Notes: generated from the letters alone by a model not told the origin. DNA of 64,000 nt from Patescibacteria group bacterium (GCA_038062375.1 JBBTXG010000005.1:51273-115272), one strand, 5' to 3'; positions 2,682-26,084 are shown, counted from the stretch's first letter. Made by a program: numbers and translations.

Positions 2682-3638
2682 ATGACTCGTATCATCTTCT
2701 TTGGAACCTCGGAATTCGGCGCGATTATTTTAGAAAAACTTATACACGCTAAGATAAGGCCTCTTCTGGTTGTGACTGTTCCCGATAAACCAGTTGGCAG
2801 AAAACAACTACTAACGCCTCCTCCCGTGAAATCACATATCATGAAGCACAAATGGAATATCCCAATTCTGCAACCAGAGAACCTTTCAACAATCAGCAAT
2901 CAACTATCGGCAATCAGCCCCGATCTCATGGTGCTCGCGGCGTACGGGCAAGTTATTCCAAAAGAAATTCTGAAGATTCCTCGCTACGACGCTTTGAATG
3001 TTCATCCTTCCTTATTGCCAAAATACCGCGGCCCCTCCCCTATTCAGACGGCAATCTTAAACGGCGACGAAGAAACTGGGGTTACCATCATGCTCATGGA
3101 TGAACAGATCGATCATGGACCGATTGTTGCAAGTGAAAAATTTAAAATGAAAAATCAAAAGTTTACTTACCCAGAACTCCATGATACATTAGCGAAATTG
3201 GGAGGCGAGCTGCTTATAAAAACTATTCCAAAATGGGTTAAAGGAGAGATCATGCCGCAGCCGCAGAATCATGCAAAAGCAACCTCTACCAAACGGATCG
3301 CCAAACAACATGGACATATTGACTGGTCAAAGCCCGCGTTGTATATAGAAAGACAGACTCGAGCGTTGAATCCGTGGCCAGGAACCTATAGCTTTCTGAA
3401 AGTTGAAACTCAAGACTTGAATCCTCAAATTCTAAAGATTTTAAGGGCTCGTGTCCTGGAGGGCACCTATGAAAAAGCGCCCGGAAAGACATTCCTCACA
3501 ACGAGTGGGAAGCTTGCGGTACAAACACAAAAAGATGCGCTCCTCGTTGAAGAATTGCAGCTCCAGGGAGGAAAGCCGATGCCTGCACGAGAATTCCTTC
3601 TTGGCCATAAAGATTTTGTCGGCACTATCCTTGCGTAA
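2682..3638 (+). CDS. fmt: methionyl-tRNA formyltransferase
   Basis: 318 aa. IIFFGTSEFG N-terminus and NVHPSLLPKYRGPSPIQTAILNGDEETGVTIM core. Confidence 0.95.
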   Translation: MTRIIFFGTSEFGAIILEKLIHAKIRPLLVVTVPDKPVGRKQLLTPPPVKSHIMKHKWNIPILQPENLSTISNQLSAISPDLMVLAAYGQVIPKEILKIPRYDALNVHPSLLPKYRGPSPIQTAILNGDEETGVTIMLMDEQIDHGPIVASEKFKMKNQKFTYPELHDTLAKLGGELLIKTIPKWVKGEIMPQPQNHAKATSTKRIAKQHGHIDWSKPALYIERQTRALNPWPGTYSFLKVETQDLNPQILKILRARVLEGTYEKAPGKTFLTTSGKLAVQTQKDALLVEELQLQGGKPMPAREFLLGHKDFVGTILA

Positions 3639-3677
3639 CCTCCTCACGTTCCAACCACATAAATCTGTCAACAATCT

Positions 3678-4250
3678 ATGCTTTCCTACTTTGATCTCCG
3701 TAAAGGCATACAATTTATTTATGAGGACCAACCTTACGAGGTTTTAGATTTCAAACAAATGGGGAAATCCCAAGATGTGGTTGTTGCCCAGACAAAGATC
3801 CGCAATCTCATTGACGGACGCGTCTTGCAAAAGAACTTCCATCAAAAAGAGACTTTTCAGGAGGCGGATGTTTCAAAGTTTCAAACAAAGTTCATTTACA
3901 GTAATCGAGGGAAATATGTGTTCTGCGAAAAGGATAATCCATCCAAGCGCTTTGAACTCACCGCAGAACAGATTGGACAAGGAACCCAGTTCTTAAAGCC
4001 AAATGAGATGGTAGAGGGATTACTCTTTCAAGATAAGATTATCAATATCTCGCTTCCTATCAAGGTGCAACTTGCCGTGAAAGATGCTCCCCCAGGACTC
4101 AAAGGAGATAGCGCGAAAGGAGGCACCAAAATCGTAAGGCTTCAAACCGGCGCTGCGGTAAATGTTCCTCTGTTCATCGAGACCGGAGATATTATTGAGA
4201 TAAACACCGAGACCGGAGAATATGTGCGACGAATATTGGATGGCGCATAA
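3678..4250 (+). CDS. efp: elongation factor P
   Basis: 190 aa. DLRKGIQFIYEDQPYEVLDFKQMGKSQDVVVAQTKIRNL, typical EF-P. Confidence 0.95.
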   Translation: MLSYFDLRKGIQFIYEDQPYEVLDFKQMGKSQDVVVAQTKIRNLIDGRVLQKNFHQKETFQEADVSKFQTKFIYSNRGKYVFCEKDNPSKRFELTAEQIGQGTQFLKPNEMVEGLLFQDKIINISLPIKVQLAVKDAPPGLKGDSAKGGTKIVRLQTGAAVNVPLFIETGDIIEINTETGEYVRRILDGA

Positions 4251-4272
4251 TGCTACGCGAACAATCAAGAAA

Positions 4273-4300
4273 AGTTGTCGTCAGAGGTTTGACGACAACT
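4273..4300. terminator. perfect 11-bp stem hairpin between convergent efp and a small minus-strand ORF
   Basis: AGTTGTCGTCA-gaggtt-TGACGACAACT. No strong T-tract on either side. Confidence 0.45.
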
Positions 4301-4341
4301 CAAGACCTAACCCTTACCTCTTCCACGAATTTCTAATGCTT

Positions 4342-4566
4342 TCAAGCAGTACTATTCCCTTCCTCCGAGAAAGACATAGGGAAAAATCGGGAGTGGTATT
4401 TTGTCCGAACTCGCCCCCGTAGATGGGGATCTTTGTTGATAGCTTGAACGGTTACAAAAATCTGATGGAAAGGTCCTATGCCGCGGCAAAAGGGACACTC
4501 TTGCTCATCGCAATCGAATAGAAGACCACAACACTGATTCCATCGGTCTCCATTTGCATCGACCAT
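4342..4566 (-). CDS. small Cys-rich hypothetical protein (74 aa)
   Basis: Internal ATG of ORF 4342..4695, preceded by AAGGAGGgaggaagagATG. Candidate promoter TTGTCT-16-TATACT at 4618..4645. Hairpin 4273..4300 lies downstream. Sequence includes CCGLLFDCDEQECPFC. Confidence 0.45.
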   Translation of the reverse strand: MVDANGDRWNQCCGLLFDCDEQECPFCRGIGPFHQIFVTVQAINKDPHLRGRVRTKYHSRFFPMSFSEEGNSTA

Positions 4567-7295: not shown

Positions 7296-8801
7296 TTATC
7301 CAACTGCTCCTACCCGGATATTGCTAAAATATGCCGGCGACGCTCCATGTCCCGTGTGCACGACCTGCAGAGGATCTGCTTTCCCGCAGGATCCCACCCC
7401 TTGCAATTGAAAACTTTTCTCATCGCATACGATTTGGCAATTCCGCCAAAAGTTGAGGTTGTCTCCATAATACTTCGCGTTTTTTCTGATCTCCCATTTT
7501 CCATTCACCTTCTCGAATGCAATTTCTGTACCAAACGTAAAGTGCCGCCGTACGTCATCAATACTCCAGCTTTTATTCGTTCCAAATAGTATGGTTCCAT
7601 TGGGAACAGAGTCTTTCAGATCTTCAAAGTCTGTCTCTCCGGGTTCTACAATTATATTCGTCATACGGATTACCGGCCAATCTCCATAGCTTTCAGTTCG
7701 CACCGCTCCGCTCGGCTGTTTGAAATATTCCCGGCCGATTTTTTGATTCAAAAGCGGTACCGTTTCTCTTGAGGTGAGAAGTCCTACCCAAACTCCATTC
7801 GTTACGAGCGGCATTCGTTGGGCGGGCGTTCCTTCGTCGTCATAGCCAAATGTCCCTACGCCGCCTTCCAAAGTGCTATCAGCCCTGATGTTTACTTTCT
7901 CTGATCCGAATCGAAATTTCCCTATCTCCGAAAGAAGAGGAGTCAAAAAACTTCCTCCAGCTAACGTCCATTCGCTCCCCAATGTTCGATCTGCCTCAAA
8001 TCCATGAACTGTCTCATGGCTATGAAGATTGAGCATTGACTGCAGAAGAATGATACCACGATTCCCCGAAGGAGCACGCGGCGCTTCCAAAAGCTGTTCC
8101 GCTTCTTTTGCGATCTTTGCAGCATTCTCCACAAGTTCGAGTTTTTTAATGTATTCGTATCCTCCTTGCATATAATAGAAATGAGAATCTGGCCATGAGC
8201 GCCGCTGGATATCTCCACCTTGTTGCGCTATCGCATGTGCCTGCAAAGAGGCTCCGCATTCAATAATTGTTTGATCAGTCCGTACTCCTTCACTGCAAGC
8301 AAAAAGTTTGCGCGTTTTAAGGATTGCTATCTCCCCAATTCGCCAAAATACTTTCTTTGAAGTCTGAACTATTGCTTCATCGGCTGAAGTTAAGAGCTTT
8401 AATTTCTCATCGAGAGAAACTGCAAAAGGATCGATTTCTATTCGTGTTTGGTATATTCCGACTTTTTCTTTCTCCCAGAGTTCCGCCCGAGGAACAAGGA
8501 AAACCTTCTCTTTTTGAAAAGAAGAGTTGATGCTTGCACTATGAATTGCCCGTCTTACTACGGTTTCGATGTTTTCTTTTTTGAGAATGGGACTTCCATA
8601 AAACCCCCAACTTCCATTCATAAGTAAGCGCACCCCAAATCCAGCGCTCCTGGAAGAATTCAAAGCGGTAATCTGTCCATTTTCAAGTTTTATCTCCTCT
8701 GATTCTTGCTCGGGGCACAGCCTGCAATCCGCATATTCTGCGCCAAGCCTTTTTGCCTGCCAAAGTACTTCTTGTACGAATTGTTGATATTCTGATTCCA
8801 T
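7296..8801 (-). CDS. tldD: TldD-family metalloprotease
   Basis: 501 aa. GFGVRLLMNGSWGFYGS and HETVHGFEADR metal-site-like motif. Confidence 0.85.
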   Translation of the reverse strand: MESEYQQFVQEVLWQAKRLGAEYADCRLCPEQESEEIKLENGQITALNSSRSAGFGVRLLMNGSWGFYGSPILKKENIETVVRRAIHSASINSSFQKEKVFLVPRAELWEKEKVGIYQTRIEIDPFAVSLDEKLKLLTSADEAIVQTSKKVFWRIGEIAILKTRKLFACSEGVRTDQTIIECGASLQAHAIAQQGGDIQRRSWPDSHFYYMQGGYEYIKKLELVENAAKIAKEAEQLLEAPRAPSGNRGIILLQSMLNLHSHETVHGFEADRTLGSEWTLAGGSFLTPLLSEIGKFRFGSEKVNIRADSTLEGGVGTFGYDDEGTPAQRMPLVTNGVWVGLLTSRETVPLLNQKIGREYFKQPSGAVRTESYGDWPVIRMTNIIVEPGETDFEDLKDSVPNGTILFGTNKSWSIDDVRRHFTFGTEIAFEKVNGKWEIRKNAKYYGDNLNFWRNCQIVCDEKSFQLQGVGSCGKADPLQVVHTGHGASPAYFSNIRVGAVG

Positions 8802-8806
8802 ATGAA

Positions 8807-9286
8807 TTATTGCTCCAGAGAAACAAGATGGAAATGGAGATATCCTATCGTTTGATATCTTGGTCCATTGGTGACGATCTTATATTTTTTGAGATTTTTT
8901 TCTTTGATAAGGGAAGACATAACCGCGTAAGCGTCGAGAAGATACTCGCCATCTTCATCTGATATCTCGCCCGCATTTGGAATATCTTTCTTGGGGATAA
9001 TCACAAAATGAACATCTGCTCTGGGAAAGGGGTGGCGTATCGCTATCGTTTTTTCGGTTTCTTTCACCACAAAGGGAATCAAGTTGGAAAATCTTTGGAT
9101 ACCCACGGATGCTGCCAATCCAGTTAGCTCTTGGGGCTCCAGACATGTATTTTTACACTCGTGAAACGCCAAGAAGGAACGCGTTCTTGTATCAGAAAAA
9201 AGGTATCCACCGAGCAAAATACCCACGAAGAAAATCGCGAGAAACAGGAAAATCGTTTTTGTTTTCAGAGAGAATATGGTTGCCAT
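8807..9286 (-). CDS. membrane-anchored HIT (histidine triad) family protein
   Basis: ATG MATIFSLK... inside ORF 8807..9355, which opens with TTG. N-terminal TM helix, then C-terminal GYLHFHLVS histidine triad. Confidence 0.7.
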   Translation of the reverse strand: MATIFSLKTKTIFLFLAIFFVGILLGGYLFSDTRTRSFLAFHECKNTCLEPQELTGLAASVGIQRFSNLIPFVVKETEKTIAIRHPFPRADVHFVIIPKKDIPNAGEISDEDGEYLLDAYAVMSSLIKEKNLKKYKIVTNGPRYQTIGYLHFHLVSLEQ

Positions 9287-9348
9287 TGTAAGATATTGGA
9301 CTACTGTTGATTGTAACAGATATCTCGTTGCCGTGGAATTTTGCATGG

Positions 9349-9378
9349 AATACAAAGGAGGCGCCTTTGCGCGCCTCC
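9349..9378 (-). terminator. intrinsic terminator
   Basis: Minus strand GGAGGCGC-gcaaag-GCGCCTCC followed by TTTGTATT. Confidence 0.7.
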
Positions 9379-9536
9379 CCCCTCACGTAGGGTCTACTTG
9401 GGTTTATTTCCGTCCATTCGATATGCCAGCTTCGTTCATGCTTTTAGGATTTCCGTGGTCCTCCTCAAAGATTACGAAGCCAGATTGTTAGAAAGGCTAT
9501 ATGTGCAAAGGCGACGAACCCTTGCGTAGCCTTTCT
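9349..9536 (-). ncRNA. unclassified structured RNA or 5' leader of the HIT gene (~188 nt)
   Basis: Bounded by a perfect-consensus promoter and an intrinsic terminator. Nested helices GAAAGGCUA/UAGCCUUUC and GCAAGGG/CCUUUGC. A 10-bp helix CUGGCUUCGU/ACGAAGCUGG has G-U pairs that work only on the minus strand. No ORF. Confidence 0.5.
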
Positions 9537-9542
9537 ATTCCT

Positions 9543-9571
9543 ATTATATCCCCTCCCATCGTACTTGTCAA
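9543..9571 (-). promoter_or_regulatory. consensus sigma70 promoter
   Basis: Minus strand TTGACA-17 nt-TATAAT, an exact consensus. Confidence 0.65.
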
Positions 9572-9686
9572 GCGCCACGCACAACCCTTGACGAGTTTTC
9601 TCCATCAAAGTTCAGGAAGGAAGTAGCTACTACGAAATTATGCATATGCATAAAATTGCAGTACCAGGAAGCGGTTCGTGGATTTT

Positions 9687-9852
9687 GATGGGGGGAGTTC
9701 CACAAAATTATTTCTCTCTTCGCTGGATTACATCAACGAGCTGCTCGAGAGCATTTCGATGGGGAGTTAGACCAAGTGGAACCAAATTTTTCTTTGCTCT
9801 TCTGATATACATTTGCGCGAGCGCAAGCGCTCTTTCTTTCGCATGTATTTTC
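9687..9852. repeat. left copy of the direct repeat (duplicated 3' end of the polyprenyl synthase gene)
   Basis: 9700..9840 matches 13278..13418 with 3 mismatches in 141 nt. Weaker similarity continues on both flanks. Confidence 0.9.
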
Positions 9853-9857
9853 CCCAT
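9708..9857 (-). pseudogene. orphaned 3' remnant of the polyprenyl synthase gene
   Basis: Minus strand reads ...AKERALALAQMYIRRAKKNLVPLGLTPHRNALEQLVDVIQRREK*. This is nearly identical to the C-terminus of CDS 13286..14296, and no upstream gene body is attached. Confidence 0.85.
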
Positions 9858-9900
9858 CGGTCTCTTTCTTGTTTTCTTGATTGCGTTGCCATGTTCCTCC

Positions 9901-10115
9901 TTACTTTATTTCTAGAACCCATTTGCGCTTCATCACGTAGTTCCATCCATCGTCTGGAGAGAATACCGTACGAAGGCTTCCTACCTCGTCAAAGGCAAGA
10001 AAGACATTTTTATTGGTATCGTAGAAACCGAAGCGATCAAGTTCCGTTGATCCCTCTAAATGTATCCAATGAGTCTGACAGCCCCACCCTCGGTCTTCAT
10101 GATCTGGAGAGCGCC
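9901..10115 (-). pseudogene. decayed orphan toxin C-terminal cassette
   Basis: 10059..10115 is 53/57 identical to 10894..10950 inside the toxin gene and encodes ALQIMKTEGGAVRLIGYI followed by TAG. A shifted frame then reads ...LDRFGFYDTNKNVFLAFDEVGSLRTVFSPDDGWNYVMKRKWVLEIK*, which parallels the resident toxin tail. There is no start codon. Confidence 0.65.
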
Positions 10116-10135
10116 TTGTGGGCTAGGCTTGTACA

Positions 10136-10176
10136 GAAGAAAACAAAACAAAAGGGCCAGCGCGTTTGCACTGGCC
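10136..10176 (-). terminator. intrinsic terminator of the toxin-immunity operon
   Basis: Minus strand GGCCAG-tgcaaacgcg-CTGGCC followed by CTTTTGTTTTGTTTTCTTC. Confidence 0.6.
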
Positions 10177-10205
10177 TTAAGGATTAGCTGGATATTATAT
10201 CAACG

Positions 10206-10529
10206 CTACTCCTTTTGGTAGTCTTTCAGTTGTACTCCGATTGTACGGAGCTGTTCTTCGAGGTTCCAATTTTCGGGTTTCAAATCGAACTTATCCAATT
10301 TAATTCCCTTTTGAACCCATTCATCTGCATGCCATGGAGTTCCTTCCTGGAGCCATCTACGACGATTTATTTCTGCGCTTTCTGGTGTACAATCCTGATA
10401 CCCAGACTCTGCACCACAGCAAGGACAAATCTCGTACTCAGGATATCCTGATTCATCGTAGAATGCGTCTGAATTGCGATACCCACAGACACGGCAGATA
10501 TACTTTTTTTTATTGTTCACATTCTCCAT
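10206..10529 (-). CDS. Cys-rich CPCC-type zinc-ribbon protein, candidate immunity protein
   Basis: 107 aa, starting 4 nt after the toxin stop codon. CRVCGY...EICPCCGAESGYQD arrangement (CxxC + CPCC). Confidence 0.6.
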   Translation of the reverse strand: MENVNNKKKYICRVCGYRNSDAFYDESGYPEYEICPCCGAESGYQDCTPESAEINRRRWLQEGTPWHADEWVQKGIKLDKFDLKPENWNLEEQLRTIGVQLKDYQKE

Positions 10530-10533
10530 ACTC

Positions 10534-12969
10534 CTATTGCCCTAAGAAGTAGTCGTAGTTCGTGGGATAGCCATGGATGGCAGGATCTGGCTTGTAGAAT
10601 GTTTTAATTCTTCCATCTGCTGCTTTTATTCCGAAGTGTTCCGTTACGGTGTCAAACCGAATGATATCTCCATTGGCACGCGTTTTGGTCAGAAGCGTAC
10701 CACCAGCAGAACGGTTCATGAACATCTTTCCAAGCCATTCATATTCAACCTCGCTTTGAACTCCCAACCTTGCTCCATGGTCTTTGAAATGCTGACTCAA
10801 CCGTATAGGATCAAAGCCCTTGTGGTGTATGTACTGTAACACCTCCTCGCCATGTTTGTCTACTATTGTGAGTATCTTCGTGCCGTACTTGGCAATGTAT
10901 CCAACGAGTCTGACTGCCCCGCCCTCGGTCTTCATGATCTGGAGAGCACCTGCCGCGGCCTTGATGACCCGAGGCGCACTCTTGAGGGTTCGGATCGAGA
11001 TTCCACCTATGCCGCCAGTGCAACTGGTTTCCAAGCAGCCCCAGATTGCTTCAAGGAATTCCTGTCTGAAGCGCTCTTCCTCGGTAAGACACTCATTCGG
11101 GCCGCAGGGTCGTATCTCTCCTCCTGCGAAGCGTGGCTGGAGAGCTCGGGCAAGGCGGATGTTGGCTGTGAGTGAGTTGAGCTTGGTTCTGGTGCTTGAG
11201 CCCACAAAGCCAGTTCCTTGGGTGAGACCAAGAGGAGTCAGGATTTCCATGGTATACTTCTCTTGGAATCGGATAACGGCATTTTCGGTCAAGGGGCCAA
11301 AGTAGTCGGTCTCCTGTCCTGGAGAGCCTGGTCCTTCGATTGCTACTGCGGTATCCAAGTAGGTATTGAGAACGATCTGGAGGCACCGCACATCCTCTCC
11401 GCCCATTTCTCGCTTGAGATCAGTGTGGAATACGCAGTCTTCCGCAAGTGCGTAGTTGGACCATTGCGTCTTTGCGACAAGAGCTTGTTGATCTATTGGC
11501 TTGGGAGAACGGATAGGGTTGAGCCCCAGCGCTTTTGCTTCTTCTTGGCTAAGGTTTGTTTCTCTGCCTGCTGGTCCGAGTTCCGGATGAGAACTTAAGC
11601 CTCCTTTGTGCAGAGCTTCTTGAATGGCAATGAGAGTTCCGTCTCGAAGGGGAGATTGTGCAGAACCAAGATCTGCGATGTTGAATCTTGCTATACTTTC
11701 TTCCGAAACTCCAAAGATCTTTGCCAGCTCTGATCGGTAAACGGCAAACCCGCTTTTGTTGAGCAGCCAGTTCGTGTAGCTTGAAATGGATTGATTGTTG
11801 ATTTGGCCTGTCCCATCGGTGTGTCCGAGAAATACCGTACCTCCTGGATTGACTTCTACTCCACCTCCGATGATGCCAAAGCTCCTGGCGAGACTCGAGG
11901 TTTCCGCCCGTGCGTCGGAAAAGGCGATACCTTCATTGAATTTCTTGTGTACCACTCCGTTCACGAAGATTTCGCTTCCAGCTCCGCCGCTCGCATACTC
12001 ATAGCGGAGAATCACCACGTGGGTTGCTTTGCGGACAATGTAGTCGAACTGCCTTCCGAGACGGATAAACGTTTTTGCATTGGGTCCGCTATCAGATTCC
12101 GAGAATATCGCGCAATCCGCAGGAATGTCAAACTCGAACTTCTTGGCTGGAATACCGCCGTACGCTGGATTGTAATGAACGATGCGCTCGGGCTTCCCAG
12201 GCCTACATCCCTGTTTTGCAGCTTCGAGAGCCTGCTGTTCCTCTATTGCTTTCTGGATTTCTTCAACCAGTACCCAGATTTCGTTGATCTGCCGTTGAAT
12301 CTCTTGCTCAACAGGTATGGGCGTAGCAGTTGGTGTCGGAGCAGGCGTAGGAGTAGGAGTCAGAGGCACTGGTGTTGAGGTTGGAGTCTGTTGGTCTGCT
12401 GCTCCATACACCATAACCTCTACCCATGGGTTTCCTGGTTCGTCTATCCCAGCATCAGAGTTGCCATTGCTCCATACTCTGATATATCGATGGGATTGGC
12501 TAGGAGAGAGGATGATCTCCTTTCCTTCCAAGAAAGACTCAAGTTCGAGAGCTTGAACTATGGATGTCCAGGTCACGTTGTCTGAAGAACCCTCTACCTG
12601 TACTTGATGTAAGATCCTTTTCTTCCCTTGTTGGTACAAAGGATAGAGAACTATCTTGCAAGCAAGGTATGCCTTTCCTAGATCAATGGTAAATGATTGT
12701 TTGCCTGTTCCTACAAGGGTGTACTCTCCGGAGTCTTTGGGGATGAGTCCATTGGTGAGAATGGAGATCTCATTCGCTTCAATCTTTGCCTGTGTGGAGA
12801 CTGGTGCGTCTTTTGCGATGTTGGGTGTGGCTCCATCTCCGCATTGTTCTCCCTGCGCTGTTCCTTGAGAGAGCACAAGGGAAATGGCAAGGAGGCTCGC
12901 AAGGATGAGTATGCTTCCCAAGAGGATACAAGGTTTGCCTGCTTGAATGATCCTGCTGATCAAATACAT
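10534..12969 (-). CDS. Sec-exported multidomain polymorphic-toxin-like protein (discoidin-like + PT linker + PG_binding_1-like + variable C-terminal module)
   Basis: ATG at 12969 preceded by AAAGGAGtgcacaaa; the track ORF opens 9 nt upstream at a GTG. N-terminal hydrophobic signal or anchor. F5/8-type-C-like segment (SFTIDLGKAYL...VEGSSDNVTWTSIV...HRYIRVW...VEVMVYG). Linker TPTSTPVPLTPTPTPAPTPTATP. PG-binding-like GEDVRCLQIVLN...YFGPLTENAVIRFQEKY. Junction AAGALQIMKTEGGAVRLVGYI, then a ~110-aa tail. Confidence 0.75.
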   Translation of the reverse strand: MYLISRIIQAGKPCILLGSILILASLLAISLVLSQGTAQGEQCGDGATPNIAKDAPVSTQAKIEANEISILTNGLIPKDSGEYTLVGTGKQSFTIDLGKAYLACKIVLYPLYQQGKKRILHQVQVEGSSDNVTWTSIVQALELESFLEGKEIILSPSQSHRYIRVWSNGNSDAGIDEPGNPWVEVMVYGAADQQTPTSTPVPLTPTPTPAPTPTATPIPVEQEIQRQINEIWVLVEEIQKAIEEQQALEAAKQGCRPGKPERIVHYNPAYGGIPAKKFEFDIPADCAIFSESDSGPNAKTFIRLGRQFDYIVRKATHVVILRYEYASGGAGSEIFVNGVVHKKFNEGIAFSDARAETSSLARSFGIIGGGVEVNPGGTVFLGHTDGTGQINNQSISSYTNWLLNKSGFAVYRSELAKIFGVSEESIARFNIADLGSAQSPLRDGTLIAIQEALHKGGLSSHPELGPAGRETNLSQEEAKALGLNPIRSPKPIDQQALVAKTQWSNYALAEDCVFHTDLKREMGGEDVRCLQIVLNTYLDTAVAIEGPGSPGQETDYFGPLTENAVIRFQEKYTMEILTPLGLTQGTGFVGSSTRTKLNSLTANIRLARALQPRFAGGEIRPCGPNECLTEEERFRQEFLEAIWGCLETSCTGGIGGISIRTLKSAPRVIKAAAGALQIMKTEGGAVRLVGYIAKYGTKILTIVDKHGEEVLQYIHHKGFDPIRLSQHFKDHGARLGVQSEVEYEWLGKMFMNRSAGGTLLTKTRANGDIIRFDTVTEHFGIKAADGRIKTFYKPDPAIHGYPTNYDYFLGQ

Positions 12970-13267
12970 TTTGTGCACTCCTTTTTCTGGTTTTCTGTAT
13001 GTTGTCTTGCTTGTCTGTATATTCCTGTTTGCCTACTTCCCTCTTGATTCTCTATTCTCTATTCTTTTAATCCCTTCGCGCTTCTTTCCTCCTTATTCGA
13101 GATTCAATGAACTTTCCAATAAACCTTCCTTTGTCAGAGAGTTCTGAAATACTTGAGACTTCGATTCTCCATCAATCCTCCTTTCAACTCTGTCAGGTTT
13201 TACTGCCATTAATACTAACTTCACCCTAGAATAGGGCAAGACTTTTATCAAGATACACCAACGCCAC

Positions 13268-13430
13268 GATGGAGTTTCCACAAAATTACTTCTCTCTTCG
13301 CTGGATTACATCGGCGAGCTGCTCGAGAGCATTTCGATGGGGAGTTAGACCAAGTGGAACCAAATTTTTCTTTGCTCTTCTGATATACATTTGCGCGAGC
13401 GCAAGCGCTCTTTCTTTCCCATGAGTTTTC
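13268..13430. repeat. right copy of the direct repeat (functional 3' end of the polyprenyl synthase gene)
   Basis: See the left copy. Offset between copies is 3578 nt. Confidence 0.9.
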
Positions 13431-14296
13431 TGTATATATGAGCTGACCCTTTTTACATCTGAATTTGTTATAACCCTCTTGGTCAAAATTCTTCTCACCT
13501 CCGTCCGTTTTTCAAAAGGTAATTCTTGGAGCGCAAAAAATATCAGAATGTTTCCGAGTTTCCGTTCGCGAATATCTTGTCCTAATGGCTTTCCAAACTC
13601 TTGAGTGCCATAGATATCTAAGATGTCGTCGGTAATCTGAAATGCAATCCCTACATTTCTGCCGTATTGCTTTAACGCCAAAATTTTTCGCCTTGGCGCT
13701 TTTGGCATCAAAGCTCCAATCTCACAGGAAGATTCAAACAAAAACGCGGTTTTCTTTTCTGCCATACCCAGATAGTCTTGCAGGGTTATTTTTCCAAAAC
13801 GATGAGTTGTTGCATATGGCTCATCAACTCTCCCGCTTTGTTCAAAAAGAATATCCAAAATTTCTCCCTCTACAATTTTCTTGATGGTCCTGGCAAAGAT
13901 TCTCGCAATGAGCTGCGGCTTGGAAGTTCTCGCTGCAGCTTCCAATAAAGAGGCTCCGTAATCCATTCCCACGCATTCTGCAAACGATCTTCCAAACTTT
14001 CGCCATGTGGTAAGCTTTCCCCTTCGCTTGTCGCTATGGTCAATGATGTCATCAATGATCAAACTATACGTATGGAGAATCTCCAAGCCCGCGGCGGCCT
14101 CCAGTACATCTTGAACTTTTCCTCCACACGCAAAACAACAAAGTATTGCCAGGCAAGGCCGCAGGCGCTTTCCTCCTGTCTCAATCTGATAGAAGAGAAG
14201 TTTCCTTGTTTTGTTCTCTGCTCCGAGCGCGAGGAGTTTCTTTATTACGGGATCAACTTTTCTTGCAATATGTTGAAAGTTCGCATCGAGATCCAT
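13286..14296 (-). CDS. polyprenyl (geranylgeranyl/farnesyl-type) diphosphate synthase
   Basis: ATG MDLDANFQ... lies 7 nt after the uppS stop; the longer track ORF overlaps uppS. Two Asp-rich motifs, IIDDIIDHSDKRRG and FQITDDILD. Confidence 0.9.
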   Translation of the reverse strand: MDLDANFQHIARKVDPVIKKLLALGAENKTRKLLFYQIETGGKRLRPCLAILCCFACGGKVQDVLEAAAGLEILHTYSLIIDDIIDHSDKRRGKLTTWRKFGRSFAECVGMDYGASLLEAAARTSKPQLIARIFARTIKKIVEGEILDILFEQSGRVDEPYATTHRFGKITLQDYLGMAEKKTAFLFESSCEIGALMPKAPRRKILALKQYGRNVGIAFQITDDILDIYGTQEFGKPLGQDIRERKLGNILIFFALQELPFEKRTEVRRILTKRVITNSDVKRVSSYIQKTHGKERALALAQMYIRRAKKNLVPLGLTPHRNALEQLADVIQRREK

Positions 14297-14303
14297 AAAA
14301 AAG

Positions 14304-15014
14304 CTATTTCCCAAATCTTCGGTGTCTGGCGGCATATACCTCCAGCGCATCGTCGAGATCCTGTTTGGTAAAATCAGGCCAATATTTCGAACAGAAGTAG
14401 AGTTCCGCGTATGCTGCCTGCCACAGTACAAAATTAGAAAATCGTTTTTCTCCCCCTGCGCGGATGACCAGATCCGGGTCTGGAAGGCCAACAGTTGAGA
14501 GATACTGACTGAAAACTTCCTCGGTGACTTGTTCGGGAGAGATTCCAGCTTTGATAATTTTTTGAACAGCCTGCACAATATCCCACCTTCCGCCGTAGCT
14601 TACGGCAAGGTTCAAAAAAAGATTTGTATTCTTTTCCGTTCTCTCTTCTACTTGATGAATTACTTTCTGAAGAGATTCCGGCAGCCGTTCTCTTTGACCG
14701 ACTACTCGAATTTTCACGCCGAGGCCGTGGAGTTCAGACTCTCTCTTCACAAAACCTTCTTGAAGACCTTTTTCGAGCAGCGCCATAAGATATGACACCT
14801 CTTCTTGAGGCCTCTTCCAATTTTCCGTGGAAAATCCAAAAGCGGTAACTATTTTGATTCCTCGTTCCCTACACCACTCGCAAAATTGAATCATCTTTGT
14901 ATGCCCTGCCTTATGCCCTTGGAAAGTATCAATTCCTTTTTCTTTTGCCCATCTCCGGTTTCCATCTGGGAATAATACGATGTGGTTTGGAATAAAAGAC
15001 GATAATTCAGTCAT
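14304..15014 (-). CDS. uppS: undecaprenyl (isoprenyl) diphosphate synthase
   Basis: 236 aa. HIVLFPDGNRRWAKEKG and RAGGEKRFSNFVLWQAAYAELYF. Confidence 0.95.
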   Translation of the reverse strand: MTELSSFIPNHIVLFPDGNRRWAKEKGIDTFQGHKAGHTKMIQFCEWCRERGIKIVTAFGFSTENWKRPQEEVSYLMALLEKGLQEGFVKRESELHGLGVKIRVVGQRERLPESLQKVIHQVEERTEKNTNLFLNLAVSYGGRWDIVQAVQKIIKAGISPEQVTEEVFSQYLSTVGLPDPDLVIRAGGEKRFSNFVLWQAAYAELYFCSKYWPDFTKQDLDDALEVYAARHRRFGK

Positions 15015-15139
15015 AGTTCTCGATTCCTATTTGGATTGGTTCTTTGAATTGTTCTCGCGCAGTAAGGTAACCTACAGCGAAAGAAAGCAAAGAAATCAAC
15101 AAAACGCCAATTGCAAGCATTATATCAGATTGATGACGC

Positions 15140-15168
15140 TTTACAAATTCGATAAGTTTTGCTAGCAT
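15140..15168 (+). promoter_or_regulatory. candidate sigma70 promoter giving a leaderless rpmA mRNA
   Basis: TTTACA-17 nt-TAGCAT, then 6 nt, then the ATG at 15175. No SD sequence. Confidence 0.4.
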
Positions 15169-15174
15169 CAAAGT

Positions 15175-15480
15175 ATGGCTACCAGTAAATCAGGAGGCTC
15201 CACGAGTCTAGGGAGAGACTCCCAACCAAAATATCTTGGACTAAAGCTTTCCCCCGGCCAAACTGCGAAAGTAGGTCAGATTTTAATTCGGCAAAGAGGA
15301 ACAAGGTTCGTACCGGGGAAAAATGTCGCTATGGGAGGAGATAATACGCTCTATGCGCTCAAAGAAGGAGTTGTCCGCATCACCAAAAGAAGAAAAACGG
15401 GATTTAATCGCGTCCAAAGAACCATAGGACTTATCCATATACTTGACGAAAACAAAATCTCTATTTCAAGCAAGCCGTAA
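15175..15480 (+). CDS. rpmA: 50S ribosomal protein L27
   Basis: MATSKSGGSTSLGRDSQPKYLGLK...IRQRGTRFVPGKNVAMGGDNTLYA. Confidence 0.95.
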   Translation: MATSKSGGSTSLGRDSQPKYLGLKLSPGQTAKVGQILIRQRGTRFVPGKNVAMGGDNTLYALKEGVVRITKRRKTGFNRVQRTIGLIHILDENKISISSKP

Positions 15481-17077
15481 TGAATTCTCCGAACAAGGGG
15501 TGAGGATGCAAAGGCCTCGATTTGAATTCCGGATGAAACTGCGTTCCAAGGAAAAAAGGATGGTCTTTCAACTCAATGATCTCGACTAAGTCTCGCTCGG
15601 GATTTATTCCAGACATTACCATCCCTTTATTCTCGAGCAATTCCCGGTATTGATTGTTGAGTTCGTAGCGGTGTCGGTGACGTTCTGAAATATCTTGGAC
15701 CCCATATGCGCGCAAGGCAATCGTCTCTTTCTGGAGCTTACATGGATATGCTCCAAGGCGCATGGTGGCGCCATATCTTTTTTCTTTCAAAAGGAGTTTT
15801 TGCTCTGCCATTACATCAATCACGGGGTGTTTGGCGTCTTGCTCAAATTCGCTTGATGTCGCGTCTTGAAGACCGCATATATTTCTCGCAAATTCAATCA
15901 CCGCCAGCTGCATTCCAAAGCAAAGCCCAAAGTACGGAATCTTTTGTTCTCTGCAGAACTGAATCGCTCTGATCTTTCCTTCTACCCCTCGCGTGCCAAA
16001 ACCACCTGGCACAATAATGCCCTCAAAGCTTTTCAATTCTTGGAGCGCTGCTGGATCTTTCTCATACTTTTCTGCCGAAAGCCATACATTCTGGGCGTCT
16101 CGTTTGTTTGCCCAACTCGCATGCTTGATGGCTTCGATCACCGAGATATACGAATCCATCAGTGTGAACTCTCCAGTCTCGAAGTATTTCCCTACAATAC
16201 CAATACGCACTTTCGCTTTGGGAGCTTTGATCACTTCCACGAGTTTTCCCCACTCTTTCAAATCGAGCGAGCGATGGGTTTCATTGAATTTTTCTAATAT
16301 CCTCGCTCCAAGATTTTCGTTTTCAAAATTGACTGGAACCTCGTAAATAGATTCCACGTCAGGCGCAGAAATAACATCCTCGACATGCACATTGCAAGAT
16401 TGCGAGATTTTTTCTTTGCGGGGTTTATCCACTGGAACTTCTGCTCTCGCAATGATAACGTCTGGCTGAATGCCCGTGGCGTTCAAGGCACGCACCGCGT
16501 TTTGAGTCGGCTTTGTCTTCATTTCTCCGATCGAACGAGGAACCGGGAGATAAGAAACCAAAATGAAGAGAACCGATTGAGGCAGCGACAATCGAAGCAT
16601 CCTTGCTGCTTCGAGAAACAGCATATTCTGATATTCTCCCACTGTTCCTCCAATCTCTACAAGTACAAAATCTGCTTTTTCAGAATCGGCGAGTGCTTGA
16701 ATTCGAGAAATGACTTCCAAGGGAATATGAGGAACTACTTCCACGCATTTTCCATCGTATTCTAAATTTCTTTCGCGAGTAATCACTGCCTGGTATACTC
16801 TTCCGGTGGTCAGATAATTGAGTGTGGTGAAATTTCGATCGAGGAACCTTTCATAGTTTCCAATATCTTGATCGCATTCGGTGCCGTCATCAGTTACAAA
16901 AACTTCCCCGTGCTCGAGAGGATTCATCGTGCCTGCATCCACATTAATGTAGGGGTCGATTTTGAGAACAGTAACATGGAAACCCTTACTCTGAAGGATC
17001 TTTGCAAGGGAAGCTGTTGCGATCCCCTTCCCTACTCCAGACATGACTCCACCTGCAACAAAAATGTACCTTACCAT
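15461..17077 (-). CDS. pyrG: CTP synthase
   Basis: 538 aa. YIFVAGGVMSGVGKGIATASL N-terminus and GLCFGMQLAVIEFARN glutaminase site. Confidence 0.97.
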   Translation of the reverse strand: MVRYIFVAGGVMSGVGKGIATASLAKILQSKGFHVTVLKIDPYINVDAGTMNPLEHGEVFVTDDGTECDQDIGNYERFLDRNFTTLNYLTTGRVYQAVITRERNLEYDGKCVEVVPHIPLEVISRIQALADSEKADFVLVEIGGTVGEYQNMLFLEAARMLRLSLPQSVLFILVSYLPVPRSIGEMKTKPTQNAVRALNATGIQPDVIIARAEVPVDKPRKEKISQSCNVHVEDVISAPDVESIYEVPVNFENENLGARILEKFNETHRSLDLKEWGKLVEVIKAPKAKVRIGIVGKYFETGEFTLMDSYISVIEAIKHASWANKRDAQNVWLSAEKYEKDPAALQELKSFEGIIVPGGFGTRGVEGKIRAIQFCREQKIPYFGLCFGMQLAVIEFARNICGLQDATSSEFEQDAKHPVIDVMAEQKLLLKEKRYGATMRLGAYPCKLQKETIALRAYGVQDISERHRHRYELNNQYRELLENKGMVMSGINPERDLVEIIELKDHPFFLGTQFHPEFKSRPLHPHPLFGEFITACLK

Positions 17078-22381: not shown

Positions 22382-24799
22382 CTATCCTTCCTCGTTTTTT
22401 TCTTCCTTTTGCTGTGGTCTTACCACATTAATGCCGCTCGAAGCGATGTTTGATTCTACTTCGTACCCTCCATTCCATGTCCCTCCCATTCCCTTCACCT
22501 GTGCTCTGTTGATGTAGATGCCGGCCTTGGCATCTTTGCTGAACACCGTTGTATATTCTACGATAATTTCTTCGTGGGGAAAAATTTGGTCAAGCTCCCA
22601 TTTCTTTTGGTGCACCACTTCTCCTTTCTCGTTTTCTAAAGCATCGCTAAGTACGGCGTGATAAGCCGGCCAGTCGCTCTCGTTCATGATAACCACCCTA
22701 TAGTCAACAGTGCCTCCGGGAGGAATAAGGTGATAAGAAGTACGACTCTTTACAATGTGCAAATCAGGCTTTGGAGTAAAAGGACGAAACACACAGTCGA
22801 CACATGCGGAGCGCGACTCGAGATTCGAGGGAGGTAGAGGAGGCATTTCTCGAAAAACTGCAAAGCTTACGGTTTCAAAATTATCTTCGTTATTCTCATC
22901 GGTTTCAAAACTCTCCACAGCCACCTTGCTTGTAACTTGAGTAGAGCCATAGGGAATATCCTGATTCACGTTTGCTGCGAAAGAAATTTCTTTTGACCCT
23001 CCTGCCAGAATAGTTCCAAGATCCCAAGATATTTCATCTCCCTGAACGCTTGCCCCATCTTCTATTGAAGCTAAGGTGAGATAACTGTTCTCAAATGTAC
23101 CTTTGAGATTCACCTTCGTTGCATCAGCGTCTCCATTGTTGACTACCGTAAGATGATACATAACTTTCTCCCCAGGTCCGATGGGATCTCGAGGAACTTC
23201 AACGCGTTCTCCAACCCAAAGATCAGGCCTTCCAAAAGCAACATTCCCCTTCCAATCTCCGAGAATATTGATAAGAGCAAGTATCCAGTTCCTGCCGATC
23301 ACATTGGTGTTCACCACATTCACAAGATTTGCAACCGCATATGCATTTCCAGTTTCAATGATTCCTTCCCCATCGTTTTCAATCTTATTTTTTCCAGTGA
23401 GCGCAAATACCTGTATGTTATTCTTGAGGGAAGCATCATTCGCGTTTTCGATATTTCTCTCAAAACCTGACTGCGACTGGTCAACACACATTTGTTTTTG
23501 GAGATCAAGAGACGGATCGCTATAAAGGATGAGGCCATCTGAAGTTTCTTGCCACACAATGCCAGGGGGCAGACTAAACATATTTCCGGCCCAATCGCCT
23601 GCGATTCGAAAAAGAGCAAAAAAGGAGCTTCCGCCGAAAAGATTGGTATTTACCTGATTTACTGTATTCGCTGCGGCAAACGAGGAACCGGTGCGCACCG
23701 CACTTGTTCCTTGGGCGCTCAATGCTTCGTTGGCTCCAGTCTGTGCACGGACCTCTATGGTGTTTTCTACCTGGGCTTGGTTGTGGTTCTCAATTATGGT
23801 TTGCGAGGAATTATCTGTCGTCTGGCAAGCCTCGGGCAACCCTTCTTGCGTTCCATTTCGATCTCCGGGCGAAGAAAAGAATTGAGAGAAAAATGACGCC
23901 GCAGGGAACACCATATCACCTTGCAACGAACCAAAATTATTTGCAACAAAGAAGAGATAGTTGGAATCGACAATATTGGTATTTACGATATTTACCATAT
24001 TCGCAGCTCCATATGCTGCGCCCGTCTGGATAGAACCGCCTCCGTTGCTATTGGAAACTGCGTTCATTCCTGTAATGGATCGCACGATCATGGTGTTTGT
24101 GACGGCAGCGCTGCTTTGAGATTGCGCATCAAGATCAATCGTATCGCACCCTGCCAAAGGACACTTGGCTCCCTCCAGCCAATTCCCTTGGCTAAAAAGA
24201 TCAAGATTCCTCAAATCAATATCTCCGAGCAATCCTCGAAAATTGGAAAACAACAAAAACAATCCATTGGAATCGAGTATATTGGCATTGACCACATTCA
24301 CGACCGTAGCACTTGCTTGTGCTTGACCCGATTGAATTGCTGCATCTTCCCCATCTTCCGTAACCGTGTTTCCACCGGTTTGAGATTCTACTTCGGTCGT
24401 ATTGACTACCTTCGCCTCATTTTCCCCTTCAAGCTGAACTTCAGAATGCTCATTCGCTTCTGCTTGAGCATCACTCGTATCTCCACTCACTTGTTCTTGA
24501 ATGGCAGGGTCAGGAGAACGAGAACTGCCATCTTCTTGATCTTGAGGCTGTTCCGTAGAAATTTCCTGTTGTGAATCTTCTGTCGGTGAAGATGGAGTAG
24601 ATACTTGCTCTTGCTCTGAAGATTCCTCTGTGCTTTCTTGCGCGGTCTCTGTTTCTTGCGCGCTTGAAAAATTCAGTTCAAAAACAGAAACGGCTCCATA
24701 GAAAAAAAAGATCAATCCAAATCCAATCCCAAACAGAATTTTGGAGAATTTTGCCGGAAGATAATTGAAGAAAAATATGTTAAAAAATGGTGAGCCCAT
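22382..24799 (-). CDS. large membrane-anchored surface protein: acidic linker + 4 novel repeats + 2 DUF11-like domains
   Basis: Start taken at MGSPFFNIFFF... (an ATG at 24886 is also possible). There are four copies of V..[TQ]TG.N...(I/V).TG.A.A.AN.VN.VNTN. The C-terminal region has DUF11-like segments (GEKVMYHLTVVNNGDADATKVNL; GGTVDYRVVIMNESDWPA). Confidence 0.8.
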   Translation of the reverse strand: MGSPFFNIFFFNYLPAKFSKILFGIGFGLIFFFYGAVSVFELNFSSAQETETAQESTEESSEQEQVSTPSSPTEDSQQEISTEQPQDQEDGSSRSPDPAIQEQVSGDTSDAQAEANEHSEVQLEGENEAKVVNTTEVESQTGGNTVTEDGEDAAIQSGQAQASATVVNVVNANILDSNGLFLLFSNFRGLLGDIDLRNLDLFSQGNWLEGAKCPLAGCDTIDLDAQSQSSAAVTNTMIVRSITGMNAVSNSNGGGSIQTGAAYGAANMVNIVNTNIVDSNYLFFVANNFGSLQGDMVFPAASFFSQFFSSPGDRNGTQEGLPEACQTTDNSSQTIIENHNQAQVENTIEVRAQTGANEALSAQGTSAVRTGSSFAAANTVNQVNTNLFGGSSFFALFRIAGDWAGNMFSLPPGIVWQETSDGLILYSDPSLDLQKQMCVDQSQSGFERNIENANDASLKNNIQVFALTGKNKIENDGEGIIETGNAYAVANLVNVVNTNVIGRNWILALINILGDWKGNVAFGRPDLWVGERVEVPRDPIGPGEKVMYHLTVVNNGDADATKVNLKGTFENSYLTLASIEDGASVQGDEISWDLGTILAGGSKEISFAANVNQDIPYGSTQVTSKVAVESFETDENNEDNFETVSFAVFREMPPLPPSNLESRSACVDCVFRPFTPKPDLHIVKSRTSYHLIPPGGTVDYRVVIMNESDWPAYHAVLSDALENEKGEVVHQKKWELDQIFPHEEIIVEYTTVFSKDAKAGIYINRAQVKGMGGTWNGGYEVESNIASSGINVVRPQQKEEKNEEG

Positions 24800-25262
24800 G
24801 GAAAGGTTTCCTGAAAAGAGAAGAAAGAAAAAAGAACACTCTTTGCCGCCATGACCGATTCTCGCCTTTCTCGATGTTTGGAACATTCTCGGCTTGTAAA
24901 GCAGATGCTTTACTTCCTCTTGGTGGATCGGCTTTGAGATACGCTTTCGTCTGCACTTTTATCTTTTTTTCCTTATCCTCATAGAAAGACTCTTTCTTTA
25001 ATTCTGCTGGTTTCTTTTCTTGAGAAACAACTCTTTCATCAATTTGTTCAACAATCCTTCCCTCAACTTTCGTCTCAACGCGAATATGTCCTGAAGAATC
25101 GTGTGTGCGCACCTCTTCTCTTTTTGCCACATTCCCACCGCTCAAAGCAGAAACTGAAACGTCATTCGTTATCGAAACTGATTTTGCGGCCACAGCGAGC
25201 GGACTCCAATATCCAACTCCCACTCCAAGAGATATGAGGACTATGTAAAATTCTTTGTTCAT
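24780..25262 (-). CDS. secreted hypothetical protein carrying a partial copy of the cluster repeat
   Basis: ATG MNKEFYIVLISLGVGVGYWSPLAVAA signal peptide. SITNDVSVSALSGGNVAK resembles the first half of the repeat unit. The 3' end overlaps the next gene by 20 nt. Confidence 0.55.
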   Translation of the reverse strand: MNKEFYIVLISLGVGVGYWSPLAVAAKSVSITNDVSVSALSGGNVAKREEVRTHDSSGHIRVETKVEGRIVEQIDERVVSQEKKPAELKKESFYEDKEKKIKVQTKAYLKADPPRGSKASALQAENVPNIEKGENRSWRQRVFFFLSSLFRKPFHGLTIF

Positions 25263-25369
25263 TGGTTCTCCCTCGGGCAAGAGTTTGACCTCTGCTCTGT
25301 ACGAACAATCAAACTCTCGCTCGAAGGAGAAAGCAGTTTCTTTACTACTGCTTTCGCCCTTCGCTCCGA

Positions 25370-26020
25370 TTAGTGCAAAATACGAGTAATGTTGGTATTC
25401 ACCACATTCGTTATGCTTGCACCAGCTAACGCATTGCCCGTATGGACTACACCGCCAATGCTTCCATTCCCGCCAGAGCCGCCATTTCCGCTGTGATTTT
25501 CATCTCCAGACGCGATCACGTCACCAGCATCGCCGCCAGATCCGCCTGATCCGCCAGAAGAGCTGTTACCGCTACTTAATGCGGCAACACCCACTCCATT
25601 ACCTACCAAAGCGCCATTTCCATTCGCAACCAAAATGAAATCTTCATCATCGTCATCATCATCACACGCACAATCATCAACAAGGGTATCATTCGTATTC
25701 ACCAGATTCGTGACGCTTGCGACAGCAGTTGCGTTGCCCGTGTGGACGAGACCGCCCATGCCGCCATCTCCACCAGAACCGCCGTTTCCGCCTACGTTCT
25801 CGTCGTCGGAAAACAATATAGTTCCGCCTTCACCTCCAGAACCGCCCTCTCCGCCGTCTGCGCTGTTGAGGCCGGTATCTGCAACCACTACAACCTCGTT
25901 GAGAACATACGCACTATTGCTGTTGCTGACGACCACTGTATCAGCCAACGCAGGCATCGCATACAGGCCTAACGATAATGCGGGCAGCATACTTATCGTG
26001 AGAGAAATTTTCGATATCAT
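25370..26020 (-). CDS. secreted Gly/Asp-rich two-module repeat protein (twin A)
   Basis: 216 aa. Signal peptide ...AMPALA/D. Two modules end in HTGNA.A.AS.TN.VNTN, joined by DDCACDDDDDDED. C-terminus NTNITRILH. Confidence 0.8.
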   Translation of the reverse strand: MISKISLTISMLPALSLGLYAMPALADTVVVSNSNSAYVLNEVVVVADTGLNSADGGEGGSGGEGGTILFSDDENVGGNGGSGGDGGMGGLVHTGNATAVASVTNLVNTNDTLVDDCACDDDDDDEDFILVANGNGALVGNGVGVAALSSGNSSSGGSGGSGGDAGDVIASGDENHSGNGGSGGNGSIGGVVHTGNALAGASITNVVNTNITRILH

Positions 26021-26084
26021 GTTTTTTGTTTGAGAACTGTCAATTTTTTTATTCGACCTTTCTCCATGAAATACACTAAGTTGT

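Follow-up and report, generated by a model that had tools for sequence, protein, structure and literature searches.

A polymorphic-toxin islet beside a polyprenyl diphosphate synthase gene of a Patescibacteria group bacterium resembles the scar of a one-sided homologous recombination event

The CdiA-CT/CdiI and Rhs-CT/RhsI loci pair a large secreted protein that has a swappable C-terminal toxin with a co-varying immunity gene directly downstream. Repeat-flanked cargo at the 3' end of a housekeeping gene is known from CIMEs (cis-mobilizable elements), integrase-less derivatives of 3'-end-targeting integrative elements such as those at fda in Streptococcus thermophilus, in which the gene end is restored, no integrase lies inside, the att repeats are short and exact and both ends are defined. 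Homology-facilitated illegitimate recombination (HFIR) combines a homologous anchor with a join at a 3-10-bp microhomology and traps foreign DNA beside a housekeeping gene with no need for an element-encoded recombinase (PMC6382021); it is documented in naturally transformable bacteria (Acinetobacter baylyi, Streptococcus pneumoniae and Pseudomonas stutzeri), for which that paper cites de Vries & Wackernagel 2002, Prudhomme 2002 and Meier & Wackernagel 2003. Here we compare with these systems an islet bracketed by direct repeats in a 64,000-nt stretch of DNA from a Patescibacteria group bacterium (GCA_038062375.1, JBBTXG010000005.1:51273-115272; hereafter the window), whose record names place it in groundwater metagenomes of Hainich well H51. 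Our analysis suggests that the islet is a polymorphic-toxin locus fixed between the synthase gene ids and a HIT-family hydrolase gene by a one-sided homologous plus illegitimate, HFIR-like event that either delivered or trimmed it, an account to which we give about half of the total weight. The features on which the argument turns are as follows.

13286..14296, minus strand: ids, a polyprenyl (geranylgeranyl-type) diphosphate synthase gene, 336 aa, intact (Pfam PF00348, E=7e-55)
13276..13430, minus strand: right repeat copy, comprising the last 47 codons of ids, its stop and 10 nt; the functional 3' end
9698..9852, minus strand: left repeat copy, a stranded ids 3' end (ids-derived part 9698-9845; 9846-9852 is the microhomology zone of the truncated gene)
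9846..9892, minus strand: truncated gene, first ~15 codons (MATQSRKQERDRWGK), with a GGAGG Shine-Dalgarno sequence directly after the previous stop and its ATG at 9892
9904..10062, minus strand: small open reading frame (ORF) remnant without its first ~18 codons, 61% identical over 44 aa to a 63-aa ORF (L020:3886-4077)
9543..9571, minus strand: consensus sigma-70 promoter of the HIT gene (TTGACA-17-TATAAT, 12/12 matches), native flank
8807..9286, minus strand: HIT-family hydrolase gene (Pfam HIT/DcpS_C), flanking the islet at the end away from ids; an identical protein is encoded on 14 contigs

Self-comparison of positions 8000-16000 recovered a direct repeat of 155 nt and 96% identity (9698-9852 against 13276-13430) at the spacing of 3578 expected from a first-pass annotation of the sequence. 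Apart from a 58-nt repeat within the islet, the whole window has no other long direct repeat that is nearly identical. Base by base, the copies mismatch at six positions (9711, 9735, 9736, 9841, 9846 and 9847) around an exact core of 104 nt (9737-9840), and the three differences in 141 positions previously counted over 9700-9840 were confirmed. The annotation had also distinguished a working right copy from a stranded left one, and both assignments hold: the right copy ends a coding sequence with a PF00348 domain that aligns full length with its relatives (52-61% identity), the C-terminus being matched to the last residue, while the left copy encodes KIHAKERALALAQMYIRRAKKNLVPLGLTPHRNALEQLVDVIQRREK followed by a stop, with nothing upstream to complete its reading frame. 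At the outer boundary, similarity stops 10 nt past the ids stop, with a few extra matches if small indels are allowed; beyond it the right copy continues into the upstream region of the toxin gene and the left copy into the promoter region of the HIT gene. Two palindromes within the repeat, GAGCGCTTGCGCTC and TTGCGCTCGCGCAA, were considered as a recombinase core and rejected, since their sequence codes for the ALALA stretch of ids and no other feature speaks in their favour.

At the inner boundary, the truncated ORF is cut exactly where the left ids copy begins, and from CATGCG onward the window sequence is that of ids. Here the truncated ORF and ids codons 290-292 share an interrupted microhomology, GAAAAnnC, at 9845-9852, made up of the five nucleotides GAAAA, two unshared nucleotides and a shared C. 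Because the states at 9846 and 9847 would give Ile where Thr291 is nearly invariant (at least 90% of aligned sequences), these two positions belong to the truncated gene and not to ids, and the ids-derived duplicate comprises ~148 nt (9698-9845). The similarity had been described as fading at both edges; a fade is indeed seen, but the one at the inner edge (9846-9852) is not ids sequence and represents the end of the truncated gene, which shares GAAAA.

The cut gene can be recognized by comparison with L020, a related toxin-immunity locus downstream of ksgA. In L020 the 63-aa ORF is free-standing, two genes downstream of the toxin-immunity pair, and is followed after 9 nt by a gene that reads MPIPNLEGTKDCWGKDQ…; in the window the truncated ORF starts 8 nt after the remnant and reads …RDRWGKY, in a position and with a spacing as in L020:4087-4479. 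The DNA identity between the two loci, TGGGGAAAA(T/G)AC, runs to window position ~9845, which is the junction. The debris at this end of the islet thus consists of remnants of L020-type genes for 63-aa and 130-aa proteins. The homologue of the small-ORF remnant was found by local tblastn against the fetched loci after a homologue search with the orphan tail of the islet had returned nothing, and the remnant bears a weak profile resemblance to the toxin domain (hhalign probability 28%). L020 itself carries three unannotated genes downstream of ksgA (3086-4479; 265, 63 and 130 aa), whose products have no Pfam match; PADLOC gave nothing useful for them, and the 63-aa protein has no sequence match in the PDB.

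Since a gene is cut after ~15 codons at an interrupted microhomology with ids, the left end of the islet is an illegitimate junction inside a gene and not the terminus of a mobile element, and the puzzle of the missing recombinase therefore dissolves. An illegitimate join at a 3-10-nt microhomology that truncates foreign sequence, as expected of an HFIR scar, is what the locus contains, whereas the defined termini of integrative elements are not seen, the left end lying in a broken gene.

The arrangement could have arisen in a single event, homologous on one side and microhomology-mediated on the other, with DNA taken up from a related strain. In one direction, a donor fragment with ids and the toxin array would pair with the recipient ids, and its far end, within the accessory gene, would be joined to recipient ids codon ~292 at GAAAAnnC, leaving the last 47 ids codons of the recipient stranded. 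In the other direction, an array-free (ids-HIT) donor would pair on the HIT side, and an illegitimate join of donor ids codon ~292 to the accessory gene would cut back a resident array that had been longer. The product is identical in the two cases, and the present data fit both. In either case the 148-nt repeat would be the overlap of a donor and a recipient ids allele rather than an att site, with no dedicated recombinase needed, a view that we hold with moderate confidence. The transformation route, the dependence on RecA and the direction of the event are what we infer from the scar; a repeat of 104-148 nt should in addition allow occasional RecA-mediated loss of the islet, restoring an intact ids. 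What makes HFIR plausible here is that Patescibacteria in culture show natural competence and incorporate DNA through homologous recombination (PMC10633639). HFIR is known from laboratory selections, whereas the islet presents a natural scar from which the event is reconstructed, and a join inside the homologous gene itself leaves the 148-nt overlap duplication.

The differences between the two copies bear on their origin. Outside the junction codon, the copies in the window differ at codons 293 (GGG/GCG), 328 (GCC/GTT) and 336 (AAG/AAA). A second left-copy allele, present in assemblies L004, L005 and L013, differs from the right copy at codons 293 and 328 (ACC) and synonymously at 312, 332, 333 and 336; for this L004-type copy, four changes are synonymous and two non-synonymous outside the junction codon, and a binomial estimate of at least four synonymous changes in six under neutrality is ~0.05. 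At position 293 the left copy has the Ala that is near-invariant in relatives, where the working copy of the window has Gly. As the differences are mostly synonymous and the stranded copy retains Ala293, the data suggest two functional alleles from different lineages, unlike the product of duplication in situ followed by decay.

Several points weigh against this account. The microhomology is short and interrupted, and the argument from synonymous bias rests on six sites. Published HFIR events mostly replace or delete recipient DNA and are not generally known to leave an overlap duplication. The same picture would be left by an attP that was born of such a junction and then served an integrase encoded elsewhere in the genome. 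The window, the part of the genome that was inspected, showed no genes for DNA uptake or RecA. Furthermore, no empty-site or donor allele was found: the islet is present on every contig that is long enough, some of these being listed by their neighbouring genes and not read. At the population level, every sequence returned by look-ups with the HIT, ids and immunity proteins either carries the islet or is a unitig that ends at or close to the repeats, and no islet-free allele has been assembled, since all four members of the 90% cluster of ids carry the right-copy C-terminus. At the species level, a genome-contig search for an empty site returned only relatives at ≤50% identity, and the nearest ids, at 61%, has different downstream genes; none of the window proteins comes from a JGI source.

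The first-pass annotation had read the locus as a classic att-like footprint, and site-specific integration is accordingly the first alternative to be weighed. The islet would then be a decayed or cis-mobilizable, CIME-like element whose attP supplied a replacement ids 3' end, its integrase being lost or acting in trans. Direct repeats do bracket the cargo, the working gene end lies on the element side, and the search for a recombinase covered only 64 kb of the genome. In addition, the toxin gene is G+C-richer than its neighbours (0.50 against 0.42-0.46, with third-position G+C reaching 0.63 in codons 500-700), a compositional foreignness that is modest for the islet as a whole, with a G+C-richer middle part of the toxin gene and a host-like toxin domain and immunity gene. 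The likeness to CIMEs extends to the restored gene end and the lack of an integrase inside.

However, the left end lies in a truncated gene and shows microhomology only. The islet repeat is 148 nt long and carries allelic differences, in contrast to the short, exact att repeats of CIMEs, and typical att cores are much shorter than a repeat of this length with scattered differences. No integrase, transposase or resolvase Pfam domain was detected in any sizeable ORF of the 64-kb window, which agrees with the earlier statement that no mobility ORF lies inside or beside the islet, and neither a cognate integrase nor a partner element was found there; the window ORFs are housekeeping genes and a ParE/Phd pair. 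Exact-protein look-ups, the toxin search and a viral scan revealed neither an excision product nor a second insertion of the islet, and viral contigs contained no relative of the toxin. Wherever their context was read, the islet genes either neighbour ids and HIT or lie on unitigs that break off within the repeats. Related toxin cassettes lie elsewhere, after ksgA in L020 and beside PKD/amidohydrolase genes in L019, and no flanking duplications were found around them; the duplication is therefore not a property of the cassette. With a left end in a cut gene, with neither an empty site nor an excised form nor a further insertion recovered by these look-ups, and with related cassettes that lack such repeats, the att-like interpretation was not supported, and site-specific integration is unlikely. 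Of the options that the annotation offered, capture by homologous recombination fits best, a decayed island or mobilization in trans being conceivable.

A Campbell-type, RecA-dependent integration would give the observed topology equally well and, although it too is an unlikely origin and somewhat more so than a site-specific one, present data do not distinguish it from the one-sided event. A fragment spanning the stretch between ids codon ~292 and the accessory gene would have been circularized by illegitimate end-joining and then inserted by a single crossover in the 3' end of the resident ids, which accounts for the join at 9845/9846 and makes the duplication the homologous segment. A homology of 104-148 nt is probably enough for RecA. 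Such a route takes two steps against one for the one-sided event, and no evidence of a circular form was obtained.

An origin in situ seems improbable. It would require that an ancestral ids-toxin array was tandemly duplicated via the microhomology between ids codon ~292 and accessory codon ~15, and that the second copy of the array was later deleted to ~10-20 nt after the ids stop. The same microhomology junction is expected in this case, but the endpoint of the second deletion would have to coincide almost exactly with that of the ids transcription unit. Moreover, copies made in place should be identical at first, with neutral decay of the stranded one thereafter, contrary to the mostly synonymous differences and the conserved Ala293.

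The layout is the same in the three assemblies read (L004, L005/L010 and L013), and at least 4 independent assemblies have it in all. A look-up with the HIT protein gave L005 and six more contigs whose neighbouring genes are the same, one of them a 221-kb contig from NCBI; these six were listed and not read. Logan contigs assembled at k=31 (L011, from three runs, and L012, from a different project) run from the islet into both repeat copies and end at 13345 and 9811, where the shared 104-nt core must break the de Bruijn path. As they cross both islet/repeat junctions, both junctions are present in the raw reads, which speaks against the assembly artefact that the first-pass annotation had named as a possible refutation. 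The scaffolds from ENA contain 100-N gaps whose flanks overlap by 55 nt (L004 5404-5503, L005 132-231, L010 1374-1473), which suggests a final SPAdes k of 55, the 104-nt core then being resolved by read pairs. An assembly artefact, in which the chromosome would read ids-HIT and the islet with one repeat copy would belong to a separate circle or another strain through a mis-threaded graph, is very improbable: both topologies share all k=31 junction k-mers, the suggested k of 55 is shorter than the core and variants shared between copies in some assemblies could be phasing errors, but the three assemblies read give the integrated path, L005 and the six listed contigs share their neighbours, and the edge variants are consistent with their flanks.

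Variation among the assemblies is concentrated in the stranded copy. The surrounding 19 kb differs by <0.1%, and of the 14-18 differences over this distance seven fall within 9690-9783 and none in the 3.4-kb interior of the islet. In this distal half, two alleles of the stranded copy are found that diverge by ~7% (7 differences in 94 nt), and codon 328 of the ids copies occurs in three states (GCC, GTT and ACC). The right copies of both L005 and L013 have the left-copy state at 13419, and that of L013 alone also has it at 13361; these shared variants reflect either exchange between the copies, exchange with incoming alleles or a phasing error of the assembler. Within pyrG, a cluster of four differences in 43 nt between the window and L004 (16756-16798) resembles a short recombination import. 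Three Logan contigs from three runs (L006, L007 and L009) all end at 9647, and the repeat structure predicts an end at ~9767. This implies a branch or a further population variant at 9648, within the perfect 16-nt palindrome TTATGCATATGCATAA (9638-9653). A plain single-nucleotide polymorphism (SNP) is sufficient to explain such an end, L008 ending at a known SNP at 9423, and a structural variant, for example an islet-free haplotype, may also be its cause.

The cargo of the islet comprises the following features.

12979..13275, minus strand: right end of the islet, 297 nt of non-coding sequence upstream of the toxin gene, with an AAAGGAG Shine-Dalgarno sequence before the ATG at 12969
10534..12978, minus strand: modular secreted toxin, 814 aa from a GTG start, 811 aa as called from the ATG at 12969
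10206..10529, minus strand: candidate immunity protein of 107 aa, a CxxC...CPCC zinc ribbon, starting 4 nt after the toxin stop
10155..10176, minus strand: intrinsic terminator of the toxin-immunity operon, a 9-bp stem with 7 G-C pairs followed by a T-run
10059..10124, minus strand: orphan stub, a 66-nt copy of the pre-toxin junction (…GALQIMKTEGGAVRLIGYI, then a stop), with 58 nt at 93% identity to 10894-10951

A search of Rfam over 8800-14400 gave no match at the family gathering score, with a single weak match in the HIT gene and none in the islet. The toxin is built of an N-terminal hydrophobic signal or anchor, an F5/8 type C domain, a Pro/Thr-rich linker, a PG_binding_1 domain, a pre-toxin region and a C-terminal domain of ~90 aa (aa ~723-814). 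A search with the full-length protein recovered nothing but that protein itself, an outcome probably due to swamping of the word index by the Pro/Thr-rich linker, and the last 215 aa were used instead. This exhaustive search yielded a domain family of 1164 proteins at E≤0.001, in which the match always lies in the last ~90 residues of proteins of 90-1937 aa; two of the 1164 are RHS-repeat proteins. The toxin itself is rare, being recorded on only six contigs, and its 90% cluster has no other member in a collection of 15 billion proteins.

To the sequence of PDB 8ey4_A, described as 'Contact-dependent growth inhibition toxin-immunity protein complex from E. coli O32:H37', the toxin domain is related at E=2e-6 with 28% identity. 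An AlphaFold2 model of aa ~700-814 reached a predicted local distance difference test score of 87.5, and its top Foldseek match was again 8ey4_A, with a root-mean-square deviation of 1.8 Å and a template modelling score of 0.85 on the target. The next matches were the colicin D tRNase domains 5znm, 1tfo and 1v74 at 15-16% identity. The toxin domain is thus most likely a colicin-D/CdiA-CT-like RNase of the BECR fold and, judged from the model, probably a tRNase.

Directly 3' of the toxin gene, a homologue of the candidate immunity protein (96-107 aa, 54-64% identity) is found in all four related loci that were fetched (L017-L020), and only the toxin-domain/immunity module is shared with these loci at the DNA level (~70% identity, window ~10870-10216). 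On both grounds, the zinc-ribbon ORF behaves as a candidate cognate immunity gene of a modular toxin system. For the protein itself Pfam gave only a weak CPCC match, and Pfam and PADLOC otherwise returned nothing useful. Among the related loci, L019 contains 59-nt direct repeats (11073-11131 and 12524-12582, 81% identity) that flank the amidohydrolase gene directly downstream of the family member.

The stretch copied in the orphan stub (10894-10951) lies just upstream of the toxin-domain/immunity module shared with the relatives, which starts near 10870; at the protein level, tblastn aligned the stub with the pre-toxin region at 82% over 22 aa. The small-ORF remnant at 9904-10062 is in a different frame from the stub. 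The content of the islet had been given as a toxin gene, its immunity gene and an orphan toxin fragment; the toxin-immunity pair and a junction stub were recovered, and the rest of the supposed fragment turned out to be the remnants of two accessory genes.

In several respects the islet resembles CdiA-CT/CdiI and Rhs-CT/RhsI loci. As in these, a large secreted protein ends in an apparently swappable toxin domain with its immunity gene directly downstream, a conserved junction opens the variable module, and a downstream stub repeats that junction (10059-10124 against 10894-10951), which could support recombination, as in Salmonella, where it has been shown between orphan rhs modules and the main gene (PMC3967940). 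Members of the islet toxin-domain family are borne by RHS proteins too, a CdiA-CT structure is among its matches, and the fold predicted for aa ~700-814 is like that of colicin D and of the CdiA-CT of E. coli O32:H37 (8EY4). Unlike in CdiA and Rhs proper, Pfam detected no FHA/haemagglutinin or RHS/YD repeats in the toxin, only F5_F8_type_C and PG_binding_1, and no type V, VI or VII secretion system genes are present among the window ORFs; the delivery part consists of the signal peptide, the F5/8 type C domain and PG_binding_1. Unlike orphan toxin/immunity pairs, the orphan of the islet is a 66-nt stub fused to remnants of other genes, the module behind it having decayed, and unlike in colicin D, the islet pairs its toxin with a zinc-ribbon immunity protein, for which these searches gave no match to ImmD. 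Neither cargo nor scar opens a new class of system, the one being a polymorphic toxin islet and the other a recombination scar of the one-sided-homology type, both of known kinds.

The best-named relatives of ids come from Wildermuthbacteria and Paceibacterota, and none closer than 61% identity was present in the searched collections. The genome with this nearest ids shares the synteny ctpB-L9-pyrG-L27-uppS-ids, which is broken directly after ids: CYTH, UbiA and mraZ genes follow, and neither the HIT gene nor the toxin. Elsewhere in the window, the gene table of L005 places a Phd/YefM antitoxin and ParE toxin pair at 981-1539, beside radC and a LigT-like 2'-5' RNA ligase gene. A run of surface-type protein genes at 22382-26744 encodes a DUF11/CLIPPER protein of 834 aa and then paralogues of 166-219 aa; these genes are built of diverged ~300-nt repeat units with a 50-nt core present eight times at 60-72% identity. 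Between thrS and miaA, a 536-aa ORF (41249-42859, plus strand) has no Pfam or PADLOC match.

The islet indicates that one illegitimate junction beside a homologous stretch suffices to produce an integrated-looking island without a recombinase, and that flanking repeats are not att sites by default. It would be a clean natural example of a scar known mainly from laboratory transformation, in a lineage, probably groundwater Patescibacteria, whose gene flow is poorly documented. More speculatively, and on a doubtful footing, the duplicated ids end might serve as a portable homology arm, by which integrase-free cassettes would move between strains of the Candidate Phyla Radiation by transformation, inserting with the housekeeping gene kept intact and popping out again via nothing but the RecA of the host; if so, the variants shared between the copies and the hypervariable distal part of the left copy would be traces of this traffic. 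The locus further adds to the polymorphic toxins a predicted colicin-D-like RNase with a delivery part made of a Sec signal, an F5/8 type C domain and a peptidoglycan-binding domain, which bears on competition among epibiotic ultrasmall bacteria.

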